The notes beneath the pieces were generated by a model. That model searched no databases. It saw only the letters and a list, made by a program, of their open reading frames with translations, and was not told the origin of the DNA. Positions 839 to 11,337 of a stretch of DNA of 14,246 nt are shown piece by piece. The translations under genes and the position numbers were made by a program. The first letter of the stretch is position 1, and each line of letters opens with the position of its first letter. Origin of the DNA: a virus (lineage: Duplodnaviria > Heunggongvirae > Uroviricota > Caudoviricetes). The stretch spans positions 1-14,246 of the IMG/VR virus record IMGVR_UViG_2690316231_000009; one strand, 5' to 3'.

Positions 839-1006
839 TCAAGCATTATGCAGGCTGTTTCTTTTTATCACCGGCCACAGCAATACCACAATGCCGCAGA
901 CCAGCACCCCATCCGCCAGCACCGACATGATTCTGCTGGTGAAATCCACCATCACCACCAGAAACAGCAGGAGTGCAGCCACAGCCAGGCGCAGTTTTAC
1001 CGTCAC
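839..1006 (-). CDS. Possible small hydrophobic (membrane) protein, about 55 aa, translationally coupled to the upstream TerB-like gene
   Basis: Not in the ORF track (GTG start). GTG at 1006-1004 overlaps the TGA stop (1005-1003) of the TerB-like ORF. Translation VTVKLRLAVAALLLFLVVMVDFTSRIMSVLADGVLVCGIVVLLWPVIKRNSLHNA has two hydrophobic stretches. Stop TGA at 841-839. No independent SD; may be spurious. Confidence 0.3.
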   Translation of the reverse strand: MTVKLRLAVAALLLFLVVMVDFTSRIMSVLADGVLVCGIVVLLWPVIKRNSLHNA

Positions 1007-1435
1007 AGGTGATTCTCCAGACGAAGACCCAGAACACCGGCAATCTCTTCCAGCACCTTGCGCTCTTCCGGCTCAATTTCGCCGTCTGCCTCCGCAATGG
1101 CCACCGCCACATCCAGCACATCTTCCGCTTCACGCGTATCGTGTTTCACATCCTCGATCTCACGTAACGCCGCACGACGACCAGTTTTAAAGTTCGTATC
1201 CAGCTGACCGATAATGGTTGCGCTAATCGCATTAATTTCCGAGGTAAACGCAGACAACGCAGGCTGATTACGTAAGACCTGTTCGATCTTCGCTTTCTCG
1301 GAAGCCTCACATTCACCATCTGCACAGGCCACCAGGTATGCGGCGTTAATCACCGCCTGTGCCAGATCGCGTTTTTCAAACTTTTTAATTTCCGTTGCCG
1401 CTCTGCGGGCTTTTTTTACCAAAAATACCAAACAT
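1003..1435 (-). CDS. TerB-like (tellurite-resistance TerB family) protein; reading frame interrupted by an apparent 1-nt frameshift in an A7 homopolymer (1411-1417)
   Basis: The long in-frame ORF (track 1003..1464) can only start at TTG 1464-1462. A well-placed ATG at 1435-1433, preceded by AAGGA 8 nt upstream, is in the adjacent frame and stops after 16 codons (MFGIFGKKSPQSGNGN). Removing one A from the A7 run joins it to the long frame, giving MFGIFGKK-ARRAATEIKKFEKRDLAQAV.... The protein has two ADGE-type motifs (LVACADGECEASEK and AIAEADGEIEPEER) typical of TerB-like domains. Confidence 0.6.
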
Positions 1436-1566
1436 CGTGACGTTCCTTTGGGTGGGTGAGCCAACGCCCGGGAGCGATCTGCCCACAGAGAAAGTCACAC
1501 TGACCACTCCGTAAGCTCCCCCCCGAAAGGCTCTGTGGTTGGTATGCGCCGGGCGTGGCGCAGATA

Positions 1567-1600
1567 CAAAAAAGGCCCGCAAAAGCGAGACGGGAAAATA
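1567..1600 (-). terminator. Weak candidate terminator after the tRNA cluster
   Basis: On the minus strand a short GC-rich hairpin (CCCG...CGGG) is followed by CCTTTTTTG (RC of 1566-1574). Stem is only about 4 bp, so support is weak. Confidence 0.25.
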
Positions 1601-1607
1601 AGTGTAG

Positions 1608-1681
1608 CGCGTTGTACTGGAGTCGAACCAGTGACCGATTGCTTAGAAGGCAATTGCTCTGTCCTGCTGAGCTAACAACGC
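1608..1681 (-). tRNA. tRNA-Arg (anticodon UCU); the 3' CCA is not encoded (genome gives CUA)
   Basis: Manual cloverleaf fold of RC(1608-1681): acceptor GCGTTGT/ACAACGC (7 perfect pairs), D-stem GCTC/GAGC, anticodon stem ATTGC/GCAAT with loop CTTCTAA (anticodon TCT), T-arm ACTGG-TTCGACT-CCAGT, discriminator G. Positions 1605-1607 read TAG, so the 3' tail would be CUA rather than CCA. Confidence 0.8.
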
Positions 1682-1694
1682 AGAATACCGATAA

Positions 1695-1771
1695 TGGACC
1701 ACCACCGGGGACTCGAACCTCGCGCAACCAGCTTCGAAGGCTGACGCTCTATCCCGATGAGCTAATGGCGG
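1695..1771 (-). tRNA. tRNA-Arg (anticodon UCG), with a slightly imperfect cloverleaf
   Basis: RC(1695-1771) = CCGCCATTAGCTCATCGGGATAGAGCGTCAGCCTTCGAAGCTGGTTGCGCGAGGTTCGAGTCCCCGGTGGTGGTCCA. D-stem GCTC/GAGC, anticodon loop CTTCGAA (anticodon TCG), T-loop TTCGAGT, encoded CCA. Acceptor stem has two G-U pairs, T-stem has one A-C mismatch and position 1 is C. Confidence 0.7.
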
Positions 1772-1778
1772 TATGTGA

Positions 1779-1854
1779 TGGTGGCCCTTGCTGGATTTGA
1801 ACCAGCGACCTGGCGATTATGAGTCGCTCGCTCTCACCACTGAGCTAAAGGGCC
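1779..1854 (-). tRNA. tRNA with CAU anticodon, most like tRNA-Ile2 (ileX/ileZ type); part of a phage ileZ-argN-argO-like cluster
   Basis: RC(1779-1854) = GGCCCTTTAGCTCAGTGGTGAGAGCGAGCGACTCATAATCGCCAGGTCGCTGGTTCAAATCCAGCAAGGGCCACCA. Perfect acceptor stem, anticodon loop CTCATAA, T-arm GCTGG-TTCAAAT-CCAGC, encoded CCA. Closely resembles E. coli tRNA-Ile2 as I recall it. Spacers to the neighbouring tRNAs are 7 and 13 nt. Confidence 0.85.
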
Positions 1855-5936: not shown

Positions 5937-6326
5937 TCAGGCGGCTGCACCCGCCGTTTTCTCGTACTTACTGATAGTGATCTCGACCTTCCCTTTCGGG
6001 ATAACCGGTCCCCACTCCACCAGCATTCTTTTCACCTGACTGTCGTCTTCCCACACACCCGCGTGGGTCAGGGCGTCAAACAGCGCCTTGTTATAGTTGT
6101 CCAGATCGCGGATCCTGTTATCCGGAGGAAACAACACGATCTCCACTGAAGCAGGTGCCGACGTTGGTTTCGGCAGACGACGTAACTGCTCAATGATGGC
6201 GGCACACGCCGCGCTCTGAAATTTTCGCCCCGCCTCGCTTATCAGGCTCTTACCAGCAAATGCCCCTTTGTTGGGGTGTCGCCAGTACGTGTTCACGCTG
6301 GGCGGAAAAGGCAGTATTAGCTTCAT
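5937..6326 (-). CDS. rusA: RusA-family Holliday junction resolvase
   Basis: 129 aa; MKLILPFPPSVNTYWRH...VEIVLFPPDNRIRDLDNYNKALFDALTHAGVWEDDSQV matches RusA hallmarks (PxxxN..YW N-terminus, acidic RDLDN catalytic region). ATGA overlap with the upstream methyltransferase stop. Confidence 0.85.
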   Translation of the reverse strand: MKLILPFPPSVNTYWRHPNKGAFAGKSLISEAGRKFQSAACAAIIEQLRRLPKPTSAPASVEIVLFPPDNRIRDLDNYNKALFDALTHAGVWEDDSQVKRMLVEWGPVIPKGKVEITISKYEKTAGAAA

Positions 6327-6976
6327 GCCACCATCTCCCTGACCAGTTTTTCCGCCTGCTGGCGAACCTGCGCCAGAAAGGCCTCACCACATGCCTCAAG
6401 TTCATCGCGCCCGATGTAGCTGATTGCCGGTCCCTTCCAGGTCTTGTCGAAAACAGCAATAGCACCAGCGAAGAAAGCGCCTGTCGGCACCTGCTTCTCA
6501 TCCTTCGGGATAAACCAGGCAGGCAGTTCAAAACCAATACGCCCGCGAATAAAAGTAATATGGTCCGCATCTTCCGGCCACCACACTTCGCTGGTGGCCG
6601 CTTTGATCAGGAAAACATAGCGCCCGCCCTTATCACGCATGGCACTGGCATGTTTCATGATGTAACGCATGCCGGTGATGTATTGCCCCTCATGCTGACT
6701 GGCGCGGCTGTATGGGGGATTACCAAAGGCAGCACCTTTAAGCTCCGCAAGACGTTCTGACCAGTCATGCGCCAGCGCGTTGTCTTCCGCCGTGTAATAC
6801 GCGGCACATTTGGCGTTATCACCGTCAGTGAACAGATCCAGAACAAACGGACCAAACAAGGTGTTAATTCCCCAGAAAATGTTGTCCGGCGTGCGCCACT
6901 GATCGCCCACTTCCTTCAGTTCATGGGCTGGTTTGTTCCGCAGTTCTACCAGCGCCTGGCAATATTTATTACTCAT
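6323..6976 (-). CDS. Phage N6-adenine DNA methyltransferase (orphan, Dam-like)
   Basis: Start ATG 6976-6974 with GGGGG SD 4 nt upstream (MSNKYCQALVELRNK...); the track start at 7021 is an extension. Contains the amino-MTase motif IV GNPPY (AAFGNPPYSRAS). No adjacent restriction endonuclease gene. Confidence 0.8.
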   Translation of the reverse strand: MSNKYCQALVELRNKPAHELKEVGDQWRTPDNIFWGINTLFGPFVLDLFTDGDNAKCAAYYTAEDNALAHDWSERLAELKGAAFGNPPYSRASQHEGQYITGMRYIMKHASAMRDKGGRYVFLIKAATSEVWWPEDADHITFIRGRIGFELPAWFIPKDEKQVPTGAFFAGAIAVFDKTWKGPAISYIGRDELEACGEAFLAQVRQQAEKLVREMVA

Positions 6977-7070
6977 TAAGCCCCCACGTAAAAAGCATCC
7001 GCAATGTCTCCGGAAGTACACCCCGGATGGGCTTCAATGAATTTCTGAACTTCATTCAAAAGACTCATGA

Positions 7071-8066
7071 TCACCCCCTGAATCCTTCCGGGATCTGGCT
7101 GTAGTCCACGTTGTCGTAACTGGCTTTGAAGTACGGGTCCTCGCGTCTGGCTGCAGATACCGCAGGAACTTCCCAGGATTCTTCGAAATGACGATCCGGA
7201 CCAAAGAACGTCGACGCCTGCTTCACGAACTGGGTACCGGTATTTCCAGAGACACGCACCCAGGCGGCATAGCGTTTCACACCGTCGAGCATGGTTTCGG
7301 GTGTCACACCTTCCCTGATTCGGGCTTTCCAGGCTTTAAAAGCGGCGGATTTTGAATTACCACCAGCACGTTTGGGATATTCCTGCCAGGCCTGTTCAAA
7401 TTCCGGTGAATATTCCTGTCTGGCAGAACGCGCTGGTGCAGACGCGTCAGCGGATGCGCCAATAGTGTTTTTAGTCTCCGTTGTAATCTCTGTAGTAATC
7501 TCTGTAGTAATCTCTGTATTTGTATCAACATTCGGCGTATCCCCTGTTCCGTTATGACGTCGGGGGGTGTTCCGTTTTAACGTAATAGCTGTATCGCTGA
7601 TTGCATTATTGCTGTTACTTTCTGGCGAAACAGAAGAAGGTGTGGTGATGGCCGCAATTGCCTGTGGGTTGATCCCGACAAACAAAATATTGCTGCATTT
7701 CACCCCATCGAGCATTTCCACCGTGCGTAAATCCAGAGTAATAAACCCTGCATCGCGCAGACGCTTCAGCGCATCTGCGGTTTCCCTTTTCCCGAAACCA
7801 AACTGCTCAGCAAACGCCTGGTAGCTTCTTTGCAGTTTGTCGCCCTGAAAACGCTTGCGATATCCCAGCAACGCTCCGGTGTGCTCATCCCTGACCTCTG
7901 TCGGGCGGTACCAGTAAACGATCTCTGAAAGCAGAGCGATAGCCGTCGCATCCGGACGCCCACTGGGTAGTCGAATATATTTCCACCAGGTCGCAGGTGT
8001 AACATTGCCGGAAATATTAATTTGACCAATAGCCATAACTTCCGGTGTGGGGGCGTAACGGCTCAT
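7071..8066 (-). CDS. Putative phage replication initiator / replisome organizer (O-like) with internal tandem repeats
   Basis: 331-aa ORF; ATG 8066 with AAGGAGG SD; ATGA overlap with the upstream ORF. It sits where lambdoid phages place the replication initiator and contains 12-bp tandem repeats encoding TEITTEITTEITTE. Function is inferred from position and the embedded repeats, not from a recognised motif. Confidence 0.5.
   Translation of the reverse strand: MSRYAPTPEVMAIGQINISGNVTPATWWKYIRLPSGRPDATAIALLSEIVYWYRPTEVRDEHTGALLGYRKRFQGDKLQRSYQAFAEQFGFGKRETADALKRLRDAGFITLDLRTVEMLDGVKCSNILFVGINPQAIAAITTPSSVSPESNSNNAISDTAITLKRNTPRRHNGTGDTPNVDTNTEITTEITTEITTETKNTIGASADASAPARSARQEYSPEFEQAWQEYPKRAGGNSKSAAFKAWKARIREGVTPETMLDGVKRYAAWVRVSGNTGTQFVKQASTFFGPDRHFEESWEVPAVSAARREDPYFKASYDNVDYSQIPEGFRG
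7471..7518. repeat. Tandem 12-bp direct repeats (three exact or near-exact copies plus one degenerate), candidate origin iterons inside the replication gene
   Basis: TAATCTCTGTAG at 7483-7494 and 7495-7506, TAATCTCTGTAT at 7507-7518, preceded by the degenerate copy TAGTCTCCGTTG at 7471-7482. In-frame within the 7071..8066 CDS. Confidence 0.75.
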
Positions 8067-8362
8067 ACAACCTCCTTCCGCAGCATGAGAATTGTGTAGC
8101 CACGCGCAGGTTGTAGTCTGGCTTTTGCATCAATAGTAAGCGTTGCAATTTTTCGGATATGAAGATAACCAGCTCTTTCCAGTGCCAGGGTTTCCCTGAA
8201 TATCGCTTGCTTAGAACAACAGCAGAAATCAGCAAGCACCTGATGATCAATAACTCTCTCGCCTTCACCGTCTGAAGAACCCGACATCAAAACACGCAAC
8301 ATAATCAGGCGCTGAATCGGGTTATCGAAAGCACATCCGCACACAAACTGAAAACAGTTCAC
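8063..8362 (-). CDS. Hypothetical protein (99 aa), possibly HTH-containing
   Basis: GTG start at 8362-8360 overlaps the stop of the upstream ORF (GTGA); its stop overlaps the start of the replication gene (ATGA). No family recognised. Confidence 0.45.
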   Translation of the reverse strand: MNCFQFVCGCAFDNPIQRLIMLRVLMSGSSDGEGERVIDHQVLADFCCCSKQAIFRETLALERAGYLHIRKIATLTIDAKARLQPARGYTILMLRKEVV

Positions 8363-8583
8363 GCCACACCTCCCAGACGCTTAAACATTTTTCCGGAGCA
8401 AAAGGCTATAAGCGGCATACTGACGCGGTAATTACGGCCCAGCGGTTCACAAACCACCTTCTGACATTCACGGTCAACCAGGCTAACACGTAGAACATGC
8501 CCAGCAGGCGTGGTGTACCACTGACCCGGACGAGGACAACGGAAAGTATGATTGGTAAACCGTTTGAAAATATTCCGGATCAT
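8359..8583 (-). CDS. Hypothetical protein (74 aa)
   Basis: ATG 8583-8581 overlaps the TGA stop of the Rha ORF (ATGA). No recognisable motif. Confidence 0.4.
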   Translation of the reverse strand: MIRNIFKRFTNHTFRCPRPGQWYTTPAGHVLRVSLVDRECQKVVCEPLGRNYRVSMPLIAFCSGKMFKRLGGVA

Positions 8584-9740
8584 TTGCGCCCCCTTACCTC
8601 TGAAGGGTTCAGCGACAAATTTATGAGACTGGCCAGCGCCGAAGCATCATTAATATAGTCATATAAGCTAACAGCCAGCGGAGATTCGGCTTTTGCCAAC
8701 ATAGGATAAAGCTGCTGCAGCCAGACCTGATGAATTGATGAAATGTAGGAACAGAGAACGCTGGCGTTATGTGCAACGTCGCTCGGTACAGCGGGCTTTG
8801 AAAGCTGTTTCTCCATCTGGTTAAAGGCATTTATGTATGCCTCTTTGAACCGGGCAGCACGTTTACCCGTGAAACCCATAGCAAGAAACGCAAAACCGTC
8901 TCGTGTGATTTGATAGCAAGGGAGCTTGCGTGTACCACCGTTCGGTTGATTTACCGAAATCGATGTCTCCGCAAAATTGCGGGCACAAAACTCTGGGGAA
9001 CAATCCAGAGTGCGGATCTTTTTCAGCACATCGTCGTGACGCTTGGAGAAGAAGTTGGCAACAGCCAAAGAAGTGGTAACGGCCTGGCCGTTGTCAATGG
9101 TGATTTCAGGTTGAGTGAGGGCTGGGATCGTAGCCATGATGGCAGCCTCCGTTGACAGTGAAAAACTTCCACCACCGGAAACGCCAATTTCACTGGTGGT
9201 GAACTGGACGGGGTTGGCGTAACCGGCGTCAACGGAGACCGGCGCACCTTTCGGTGCCCCCGCCCAGCCCACCATAATCTGGATGTGAGCAAATGCGGAC
9301 GATAAAAAAGACGCTGGCGCGTCATACATCGCCGTTGACAATTTCAGGACGCCAATCCCGGCACCCGCTTTATAAGGTGCCTGAGCAGTGTAACGTCCCG
9401 GAATTGCAGAATCAATATGCTGGTGGTCCTTCACACTCAACAAAATCACGCCTGAATTTCCACAAAGGACTAAAGCACTCATGCGGGTAGTCTTTGCGAA
9501 GATAGATAACGCGCTGTGTTTCTGGCTCCCAACGAATAACATGGACATAAAGCCCTCTTCCGTCACGAAACCAGCGGTTAAGTTCCTGCACAACTCGCCC
9601 CCCACAGTCAGGTAAAGTTCTCTGTGGTTACTTACAGCCAGGTGATTTGGTAATCTGCATTCATGCCGTAACAACAGGTGTTCAGCGACGCTGACCACCA
9701 GCTGTTGCGACAAACGGTTATTTGCCGTTAAACTATTCAT
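8580..9740 (-). CDS. Rha-family phage regulatory protein with an about 200-aa N-terminal extension of unknown function; strong internal start at 9137
   Basis: 386-aa uninterrupted ORF. Residues about 220-310 (LAVANFFSKRHDDVLKKIRTLDCSPEFCARNFAETSISVNQPNGGTRKLPCYQITRDGFAFLAMGFTGKRAARFKEAYINAFNQME) form a Phage_pRha domain. ATG 9740 overlaps the CII-like stop (ATGA). An internal ATG at 9137 with GGAGG 8 nt upstream would give a 185-aa stand-alone Rha protein (MATIPALTQPEITIDNGQAV...). Confidence 0.6.
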   Translation of the reverse strand: MNSLTANNRLSQQLVVSVAEHLLLRHECRLPNHLAVSNHRELYLTVGGELCRNLTAGFVTEEGFMSMLFVGSQKHSALSIFAKTTRMSALVLCGNSGVILLSVKDHQHIDSAIPGRYTAQAPYKAGAGIGVLKLSTAMYDAPASFLSSAFAHIQIMVGWAGAPKGAPVSVDAGYANPVQFTTSEIGVSGGGSFSLSTEAAIMATIPALTQPEITIDNGQAVTTSLAVANFFSKRHDDVLKKIRTLDCSPEFCARNFAETSISVNQPNGGTRKLPCYQITRDGFAFLAMGFTGKRAARFKEAYINAFNQMEKQLSKPAVPSDVAHNASVLCSYISSIHQVWLQQLYPMLAKAESPLAVSLYDYINDASALASLINLSLNPSEVRGRK

Positions 9741-10644: not shown

Positions 10645-11337
10645 ATGAACATAGGAAACCGAGTCAGACAACTTCGCCAGGCGAAGAACATGAAAATCGC
10701 CGATCTCGCTGAAGCAATAGGAGTGGATGCGGCGAATATCTCACGCCTGGAAACAGGTAAGCAGAAACAATTCACTGAACAAGCCCTGAGTAATATTGCC
10801 AGGAGCTTAGGTGTTGATATTGCTGATCTCTTTACCTCAGACGTCAAAAGTAATACTGTATGTAAAAACAGTATTAGTGAGGATGTTGCGCAGGTGAAGG
10901 ATGTATTCCGTATTGAAATGCTGGATGTCAGTGCCAGTGCGGGAAATGGCCTTATCCAGGGCGGTGATGTCATTGATGTGATTCATGCCATTGAATACAG
11001 AACTGATAATGCTGTATCGATGTTTGGCGGACGGCCAGCCAATCACATTAAAGTTATCAACGTTCGTGGGGACAGTATGTGTCCAACCATTGAGCCAGGA
11101 GATCTCATCTTCGTTGATGTCAGTATCAATCAGTTTGATGGAGATGGTATCTATGTATTTGGTTTTGATGATAAAATTTATGTCAAACGACTGCAAATGA
11201 TACCTGACAAACTACTGGTGATTTCTGATAACCAGATTTACCGTGAATGGGGAATTACCAGCGAAAATGAACACCGGTTTATGGTCTTTGGAAAGGTCTT
11301 AATCAGCCAGTCACAAACCCTTAAGCGACACAATTAA
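10645..11337 (+). CDS. CI-type prophage repressor (HTH_XRE N-domain plus S24 LexA-like autopeptidase C-domain)
   Basis: 230 aa; N-terminal HTH (VRQLRQAKNMKIADLAEAIGVDAANISRLETGK); Ala-Gly cleavage site (SASAGNG); catalytic Ser in GDSMCPTI and Lys in YVKRL. No SD precedes the ATG at 10645. Confidence 0.9.
   Translation: MNIGNRVRQLRQAKNMKIADLAEAIGVDAANISRLETGKQKQFTEQALSNIARSLGVDIADLFTSDVKSNTVCKNSISEDVAQVKDVFRIEMLDVSASAGNGLIQGGDVIDVIHAIEYRTDNAVSMFGGRPANHIKVINVRGDSMCPTIEPGDLIFVDVSINQFDGDGIYVFGFDDKIYVKRLQMIPDKLLVISDNQIYREWGITSENEHRFMVFGKVLISQSQTLKRHN

Follow-up and report, generated by a model that had tools for sequence, protein, structure and literature searches.

The question raised by this locus is what a short tandem repeat is doing inside a phage replication gene. 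The DNA analysed (IMG/VR virus record IMGVR_UViG_2690316231_000009, 14,246 nucleotides; hereafter the window) carries on its minus strand a gene for a 331-amino-acid replication initiator (7071..8066), and within it a set of 12-base-pair (bp) direct repeats. An earlier, sequence-only reading had suggested that these repeats may be either the iterons of a replication origin, as in the lambda O gene, or a slippage-prone repeat in a protein linker. The initiator gene is 100% identical to an E. coli chromosome and the window is therefore a prophage. On balance we favour the view that the 12-mers are a cis-acting part of the prophage replication origin, situated in the DNA that encodes the linker of the initiator, and that they represent the common half of a lambda-like two-part origin.

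Tandem Repeats Finder reported a period-12 repeat at 7475-7518 (3.7 copies, 93% matches, score 74). In the plus-strand register the unit is TAATCTCTGTAG, with exact copies at 7484-7495 and 7496-7507, a third copy with one mismatch (TAATCTCTGTAT) at 7508-7519 and a fourth, degenerate copy (TAGTCTCCGTTG) at 7472-7483; the three exact or near-exact units and the degenerate fourth originally described are thus confirmed. The exact self-match of the window at lag 12 extends over 24 nucleotides from 7483 and, as 300 Markov-1 simulations of the window produced no self-match run longer than 15 nucleotides (lags of 4 to 30), the repeat is not a chance occurrence. In gene sense the array is composed of ACAGAGATTACT units and occupies 7470..7519 on the minus strand; good copies lie at 7506-7517, 7494-7505 and 7482-7493, and the degenerate copy ACGGAGACTAAA at 7470-7481. 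The array is A-rich, with 63% purine on the coding strand, and is in frame with the initiator open reading frame (ORF), again as first noted: the repeat encodes TEITTEITTEITTE and the peptide in the initiator reads ...DTNTEITTEITTEITTETKNT...

Evidence that the array matters as DNA came from its conservation. A search with the N-terminal 198 residues of the initiator gave 430 homologues, including proteins from Salmonella, Citrobacter, Yersinia, Serratia, Proteus, Morganella, Arsenophonus and Marinomonas. In nearly all of the best 120 of these 430 the sequence (T/N)(Y/N)TEITTEITTE ends an otherwise unconserved linker, and among the same 120 the motif is kept whichever of at least four unrelated C-terminal modules follows. 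To guard against ascertainment bias, genomic loci were then gathered by alignment of the N-terminal domain (N-domain, residues 1-135) alone. This yielded 361 relatives in the reference-genome collection, 80 of which were examined (N-domains 42-71% identical); they derive from Enterobacterales, Acinetobacter, Marinomonas, many Bacillota, Cyanobacteria, Chloroflexota, Armatimonadota, Atribacterota and Rickettsiales. The motif was present in 64 of the 80 loci, with examples from every one of these groups except Rickettsiales, whose loci had only diverged variants (ACAAAGACTACT) and are not counted among the 64.

The DNA encoding the motif is constant across loci (ACR WAT ACA GAG AWT ACT ACA GAG AWT ACT), and this constancy extends to bases that are free to vary at the protein level. 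In 58 motif-bearing homologues, codon usage in the array was compared with that in the rest of the same genes. Glutamate was encoded by GAG in 98 of 103 array positions (95%) but in 595 of 1517 elsewhere (39%; Fisher 8e-32), isoleucine by ATT in 71 of 78 against 570 of 1396 (Fisher 2e-19) and lysine by AAG in 22 of 27 against 475 of 1409 (Fisher 6e-07), and the first codon of the unit was ACA in 128 of 141 cases (91%). As a control, synonymous codons were scrambled in the 36 N-domain columns that are at least 85% conserved, the commonest codon having a mean share of 0.46; a control glutamate column, conserved in 69 of the 80 sequences, was divided between GAA (57%) and GAG (43%). With up to one mismatch allowed, ACAGAGAWTAC occurs 131 times in gene sense in the 80 loci, nearly always 480-700 nucleotides into the gene; the remainder of these loci, with both strands included, has 13 matches, which makes the enrichment 54-fold. 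Orientation is fixed, with only three reverse-strand matches, and at 17 matches the reading frame is not the one that gives TEIT, the usual product being YRDY or NRDY. Because the synonymous bases of the array are fixed and its conservation is independent of frame, selection, as judged by these codon and frame comparisons, acts on the nucleotide sequence and not at the level of the protein.

Individual loci depart from this pattern. The variant ACAAAGACTACT (peptide TKTT) recurs in unrelated loci from a gammaproteobacterial metagenome-assembled genome and Rickettsiales (L029, L065 and L077), every unit of a locus being altered alike, which suggests concerted evolution of the units or co-evolution with their reader. 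In an uncultured Bacillaceae metagenome-assembled genome (L057, gene from 1501), an apparently intact N-domain homologue of 334 amino acids has neither recognizable iterons nor a 12-mer array, and is a possible natural exception.

The array is also independent of the type of initiator in which it lies. When viral contigs were screened for two exact tandem units, at least 120 carried the pattern and, among the matches listed, 112 ORFs of at least 230 amino acids carry the array 380-800 nucleotides in, always in the sense orientation. The N-domains of these 112 form six clusters at a BLAST threshold of 1e-8, two of them single sequences, and the clusters merge by single linkage only at E 1e-3. 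Directly 5' of the array, every N-domain class has four to five repeats of its own with a spacing of about 22-23 bp, and the recognition helix varies while the array does not. For example, the Stx2a phage LC567818 (L001) has a near-identical C-terminal module and its own GGTTTCCC-type 23-bp repeats, followed by the same 12-mers read as TENTTEITSENTTE; profile comparison of its N-domain with the window family returned a probability of 6.6%, so homology between the two is not demonstrable by this method. A third type of E. coli initiator, of the HTH_36 family, has the C-terminal module of the window together with other repeats and no 12-mers, from which it follows that the array goes with the winged-helix superfamily and not with the C-terminal module. 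By these comparisons, at least five classes of initiator N-domain and many C-terminal modules are found with one and the same array, which does not change with iteron specificity. One HTH_36-type locus, E. coli MDP9-27 (L006, gene 898-1809, minus strand), has in its linker DNA CC(C/G)TCAGAWTCTG repeats (peptide DPSDSEPSKSEPSES...) followed, in place of the 12-mer array, by two AAAACATGAACC units 24 bp apart; this looks like an independent iteron-plus-short-repeat design.

Immediately 5' of the array in the window are three 15-mers on the minus strand that are better candidates for iterons. The first, TACGTTAAAACGGAA in gene sense (7570..7584), is an imperfect palindrome located 23 bp from its direct repeat, GACGTCATAACGGAA (7547..7561). 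The third, TACGCCGAATGTTGA (7525..7539), is degenerate and the weakest of the three, being recognized by its position, 22 bp after the second copy and 22 bp before the first 12-mer core, and by a partial match to the iteron of Serratia and Yersinia. Two copies are clearly related, and relatives have three to five clearer ones. The array begins 8 bp beyond the last palindrome. The three palindromes are read in frames 2, 1 and 2, one DNA repeat giving LKRNT in one case and HNGT in another, which indicates that they are repeated at the DNA level. When loci were compared by anchoring on the first 12-mer, each lineage proved to have its own repeats directly 5', usually palindromic, at 22-23 bp spacing and with C-rich spacers. 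These include TACAAAAYTTTGTA in Coprococcus (five copies), TACGTTGAAACGTAA in Serratia, Yersinia and Xenorhabdus (three to four copies; the counterpart of the first palindrome of the window), CATGTAATCAATTACATG in Syntrophomonas and TGGCGCYACAGCGCCA in a Chloroflexota genome. Within the winged-helix N-domain, which is otherwise conserved, it is the predicted recognition helix (residues 93-105) that varies, and similarity in the iteron zone showed a modest association with identity in this helix when the rest of the domain was controlled for (partial r 0.26, reached in 0 of 500 permutations). Iterons are specific to their cognate initiator and are typically about 17-22 bp long with a spacing of about 22 bp. 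Since the palindromes vary by lineage, as does the recognition helix, they behave like iterons; those at 7525-7584 are likely to be initiator-specific iterons, and we infer that the initiator binds them.

The layout of the locus resembles that of characterized phage origins. The array and palindromes occupy nucleotides 483-597 of the 996 in the gene, between the N-domain and the C-terminal module. In lambda and P22, likewise, the origin lies in DNA for the linker between the DNA-binding N-domain of the initiator and an exchangeable C-terminal domain, and is made up of palindrome-containing iterons, spaced by about two helical turns, with an A-rich tract on their 3' side that melts easily and contains short repeats. 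Lambda has four annotated iterons and then GACACAAAAGACACTATTACAAAAGAAAAAAGAAAAGATTATT, encoding DTKDTITKEKRKD; P22 has an annotated rep_origin with GGTAAAAC-type iterons and then ACAAAAGACAATATACAAAAGACAATAAATACAAATAC, encoding NTKDNIQKTINTNT. The tract peptide is rich in T, K, D, E and I in all three, the window having DTNTEITTEITTE at this position. The repeats are next to palindromes and are placed as in the lambda and P22 origins, and the origin assignment is therefore well founded. The A-rich tract of lambda is the unwinding region, the single strand of which is bound by O (PMC7466680). There are also differences from both phages: the tract in the window is an ordered 12-mer array, conserved in nucleotide sequence across phyla and not merely AT-rich; the iterons number only three, including a degenerate one; and no P-like or DnaC-like loader gene follows in the window, the next gene being for a Dam methylase. 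The AT-rich origin halves of lambda (L087, 39119-39175) and P22 (L208, 4925-4965) have a short repeat of their own, ACAAAAGAC(A), at about 14-15 bp. At the right edge of the lambda tract, TCAGAGAATTC is two mismatches from the 11-mer ACAGAGAWTAC; as an 11-mer match of this quality is expected, by our estimate, about 20 times per 48 kilobases, sequence homology to lambda through this element lacks statistical support and the layout alone is taken to be shared.

The physical properties of the array are in keeping with such a position. It is the least stable 36-bp duplex of the initiator gene (rank 1 of 960) and falls within the least stable 1.5-2.3% of the 14-kilobase window. GC content is 0.33 at 7460-7519 and about 0.5-0.6 in the flanks, so that an AT-rich, easily melted tract adjoins the last candidate iteron on its 3' side. 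Low-stability, tandem short repeats are thus found directly beside candidate initiator sites and in fixed orientation, as in an unwinding element. The 13-mers of oriC and of RK2 oriV are comparable in being tandem 12-13-nucleotide units beside the duplex sites of an initiator, whose exact sequence matters beyond AT content; in RK2, sequence-specific binding of the winged-helix initiator TrfA to the 13-mers of the unwinding element takes place on one of their strands (PMC4081077). However, the sequences are unrelated, the element in the window is inside a coding region and there are no DnaA boxes nearby (none in 7400-7700, with a window-wide count at the level of chance). The RepA_N plasmid replicons (pSK41 family) differ in that the initiator of the window has no RepA_N domain (Pfam PF06970). 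Promoter and terminator scans of 7000-8700 gave counts equal to those in shuffled sequence. A full-text literature search found no description of the 12-mer array but covered the older lambdoid-origin literature incompletely, and an earlier description is possible; concept-level searches on the array returned only background on lambda, RK2 and RepA_N.

We propose a two-part origin as in lambda, made up of the lineage-specific 15-mer palindromes (7525-7584) and the common 12-mer array (7470-7519). The winged-helix N-domain would read the three 15-mers, which would be the true iterons; initiator oligomers assembled on them would force open the array, where strand opening would start, and one strand of the array would then be held sequence-specifically by a conserved surface of the initiator, and the C-terminal module would bring in the helicase for loading at this site. 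A number of points weigh against this proposal. The AT-richness of the array is no more than moderate (about 33% GC over 60 bp), and less stable stretches exist elsewhere in the window. The candidate iterons in the window are few, and the association between iterons and recognition helix is confounded by phylogeny. The homologues are not independent samples, and the anchored ungapped identity figures are partly circular for the first 12-mer and were not used as support. Furthermore, a pure unwinding element would not require letter-perfect conservation. Conservation of this kind implies a sequence-specific reader, candidates for which are the invariant block formed by helix 1 and the beta-hairpin of the initiator or a universally conserved replisome protein.

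A different explanation for the data is that the 12-mers are themselves the iterons, serving as duplex sites for the initiator N-domain, with the palindromes being auxiliary or regulatory. The array is a set of direct repeats (3.7 copies in the window, one to six per locus among homologues), is co-inherited with the initiator superfamily and is almost confined to such genes, and iteron plasmids and phages also combine short direct repeats in the origin with a winged-helix initiator. A conserved helix (..LLxQIxYW) with a beta-hairpin after it is common to all N-domain classes that carry the array and, as the classes are joined at BLAST E 1e-3, a shared conserved surface could read the conserved site in duplex form; this too counts against the two-part proposal. 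However, the 12-mers do not co-vary with the cognate DNA-binding domain: the same ACAGAGAWTAC is found in all six clusters and across phyla, while recognition helix and palindromes change from lineage to lineage. The units abut each other, a 12-bp spacing far tighter than the 22-23 bp of the palindromes or that of the lambda and P22 iterons, their position matches the AT-rich tract of lambda and not its iterons, and some family members have only one good copy. The neighbouring palindromes fit the description of iterons better, and we consider it unlikely that the 12-mers have this role. What stands of the original proposal is that the repeats appear to be cis-acting DNA in an origin-like position beside palindromes; their designation as the iterons does not.

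Another possibility is that the array acts as a conserved recombination joint, allowing diverged initiator genes to swap N- and C-terminal modules by homologous recombination. When 7380-7720 was used as a query, homology to the C-terminal module in E. coli genomes ended either right after the array (7380-7518; query 1-139) or right before it (7380-7464/66; query 1-85/87), and phages sharing 7380-7518 with the window have another N-domain. Breakpoints therefore coincide with both edges of the array, many different C-terminal modules follow one array and, on this mapping, the array is a marker of the module-exchange junction in lambdoid initiator genes. As an account of why the array is conserved, recombination is nevertheless very improbable: only direct purifying selection would keep synonymous sites constant across phyla, selection for evolvability being weak; it would be left unexplained why the 12-nucleotide units are in tandem order, why their distance from the iterons and their orientation to them are fixed and why the duplex is of low stability; and any conserved element would collect breakpoints. 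The breakpoints at the array edges are most simply a by-product of its conservation.

An element acting at the RNA level in the initiator mRNA, as a regulator target or in translational control, would account equally well for nucleotide conservation regardless of frame and for the location of all matches but three on the sense strand. We regard this as scarcely credible, as a scan of 6900-8700 found no Rfam match at E up to 1, no structure is predicted for either strand of the array (minimum free energy of 0 for both) and the element adjoins repeated palindromes, arranged as in known phage origins. Hairpin and RNA-structure explanations were dropped on the first two of these grounds. The iteron zone likewise folds no better than shuffled sequence.

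Repeat copy number had been put forward as a check on the role of the array, and it does vary, from one to three exact units among near-identical E. coli and Shigella prophages. In E. coli, the near-identical prophages SCU-125, THO-003 and FDAARGOS_943 have two units where the window has three, differing by exactly one 12-bp unit within 340 bp of surrounding sequence that is almost base-for-base the same, and database proteins P0009-P0015, at 97% identity, have only one. Such whole-unit differences, together with a period equal to four codons, are what would be expected of a mere slippage-prone in-frame repeat encoding a flexible Thr/Glu/Ile linker, with selection at most on the protein, yet we give this reading virtually no credence since, although the predicted variation in copy number is there, an unconstrained sequence is contradicted by the fixed synonymous positions (conserved residues elsewhere having scrambled codons), by the 17 cases read as YRDY or NRDY and by the complete lack of conservation in the remainder of the linker. 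Several homologues (P0002, P0020, P0023, P0024 and P0039) run out of frame through the iteron and array region (...RDYYRDYNGD; ...LIQIQRLLQRLQRRLKTLL...), which points to frameshifts or misassembly near the repeats, or to prophage copies in decay.

The initiator itself, identified from its ORF, translation and family match, consists of an N-terminal winged-helix domain, the origin-carrying linker and an exchangeable C-terminal module. It matches PHROG 270, 'replication initiation protein' (E 2e-77), with weak matches to 'replication initiation O-like' PHROGs, and its C-terminal part matches DnaD-like helicase loader and primosomal PHROGs. A Pfam scan gave no match above threshold, the best being HTH_36 (E 0.017, 15 bits against a cut-off of 25), and placed the protein outside Phage_rep_O, the lambda O family, to which P22 gp18 belongs (129 bits, E 7e-38); no family was found in an NCBIfam scan. 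The description of the gene as O-like thus holds for role and layout and not for family. The N-domain (7662..8066, minus strand), the candidate origin-binding domain, is a winged helix with a beta-hairpin insertion, for which comparison with PDB sequences gave only weak GntR/FadR winged-helix matches (E 0.007); the C-terminal module (7071..7465, minus strand) had no match among PDB sequences and is shared, at a DNA identity of 84-94%, with many lambdoid, Stx, SfV and cdtI phages whose N-domains are different. The last 35 or so codons (7071-7175) co-vary with the next gene (6323-7021 in the window; loci L001-L006 compared). In the window and L002 the tail reads ...EVPAVSAARREDPYFKASYDNVDYSQIP(E/A)GFRG and is followed by Dam or PerC, with no helicase loader; in L003, L001 and L006 it reads ...QQPAA(H/P)GGGR... 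and the next gene encodes a DnaC-like ATP-binding protein or a helicase. A possible role for the tail is that of a docking peptide for the loader.

The gene belongs to an early-right operon on the minus strand that comprises cro-proximal ORFs, a Rha/Ash regulator (8580-9740), two small ORFs and the initiator, with genes for the Dam methylase, RusA, a KilA-N protein and a DUF968/HNH protein on its 3' side. A 99-amino-acid ORF (8063-8362, minus strand) overlaps the start of the initiator gene and is conserved upstream of it in L002 and L003. Its match to a PHROG 'replication initiation protein' (phrog_4617, E 4e-29) covers no more than the N-terminal 93 of 223 positions, and the ORF is possibly left over from the replication module or accessory to it. 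In the immunity region there is a period-9 tandem repeat, TGATGTCAT (10965-10994, 3.3 copies, 76% match), within or beside a 230-amino-acid ORF (10645-11337), which may be operator-like.

A broader proposal, which we advance tentatively, is that ACAGAGAWTACW arrays may be a universal, sequence-specific element for origin opening and helicase loading in a huge superfamily of winged-helix initiators from phages and prophages across phyla, read as a single strand by helix 1 and the beta-hairpin of the initiator or by a universally conserved component of the replisome, with the iterons providing only the addressing. If this is the case, the arrays would correspond, in mobile elements, to the oriC 13-mers or the DnaA-trios, and one short DNA word would flag the origin in thousands of unannotated prophages and phages of Gram-negative and Gram-positive hosts. 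The addressing part of the origin, the variable iterons, would be separable from a mechanical part conserved across phyla, and the opening of DNA by winged-helix initiators that lack an ATPase would become directly testable. It would also explain the position of the module-exchange breakpoint in initiator genes, and would offer a handle for building origin plasmids or origin-decoy phage resistance.

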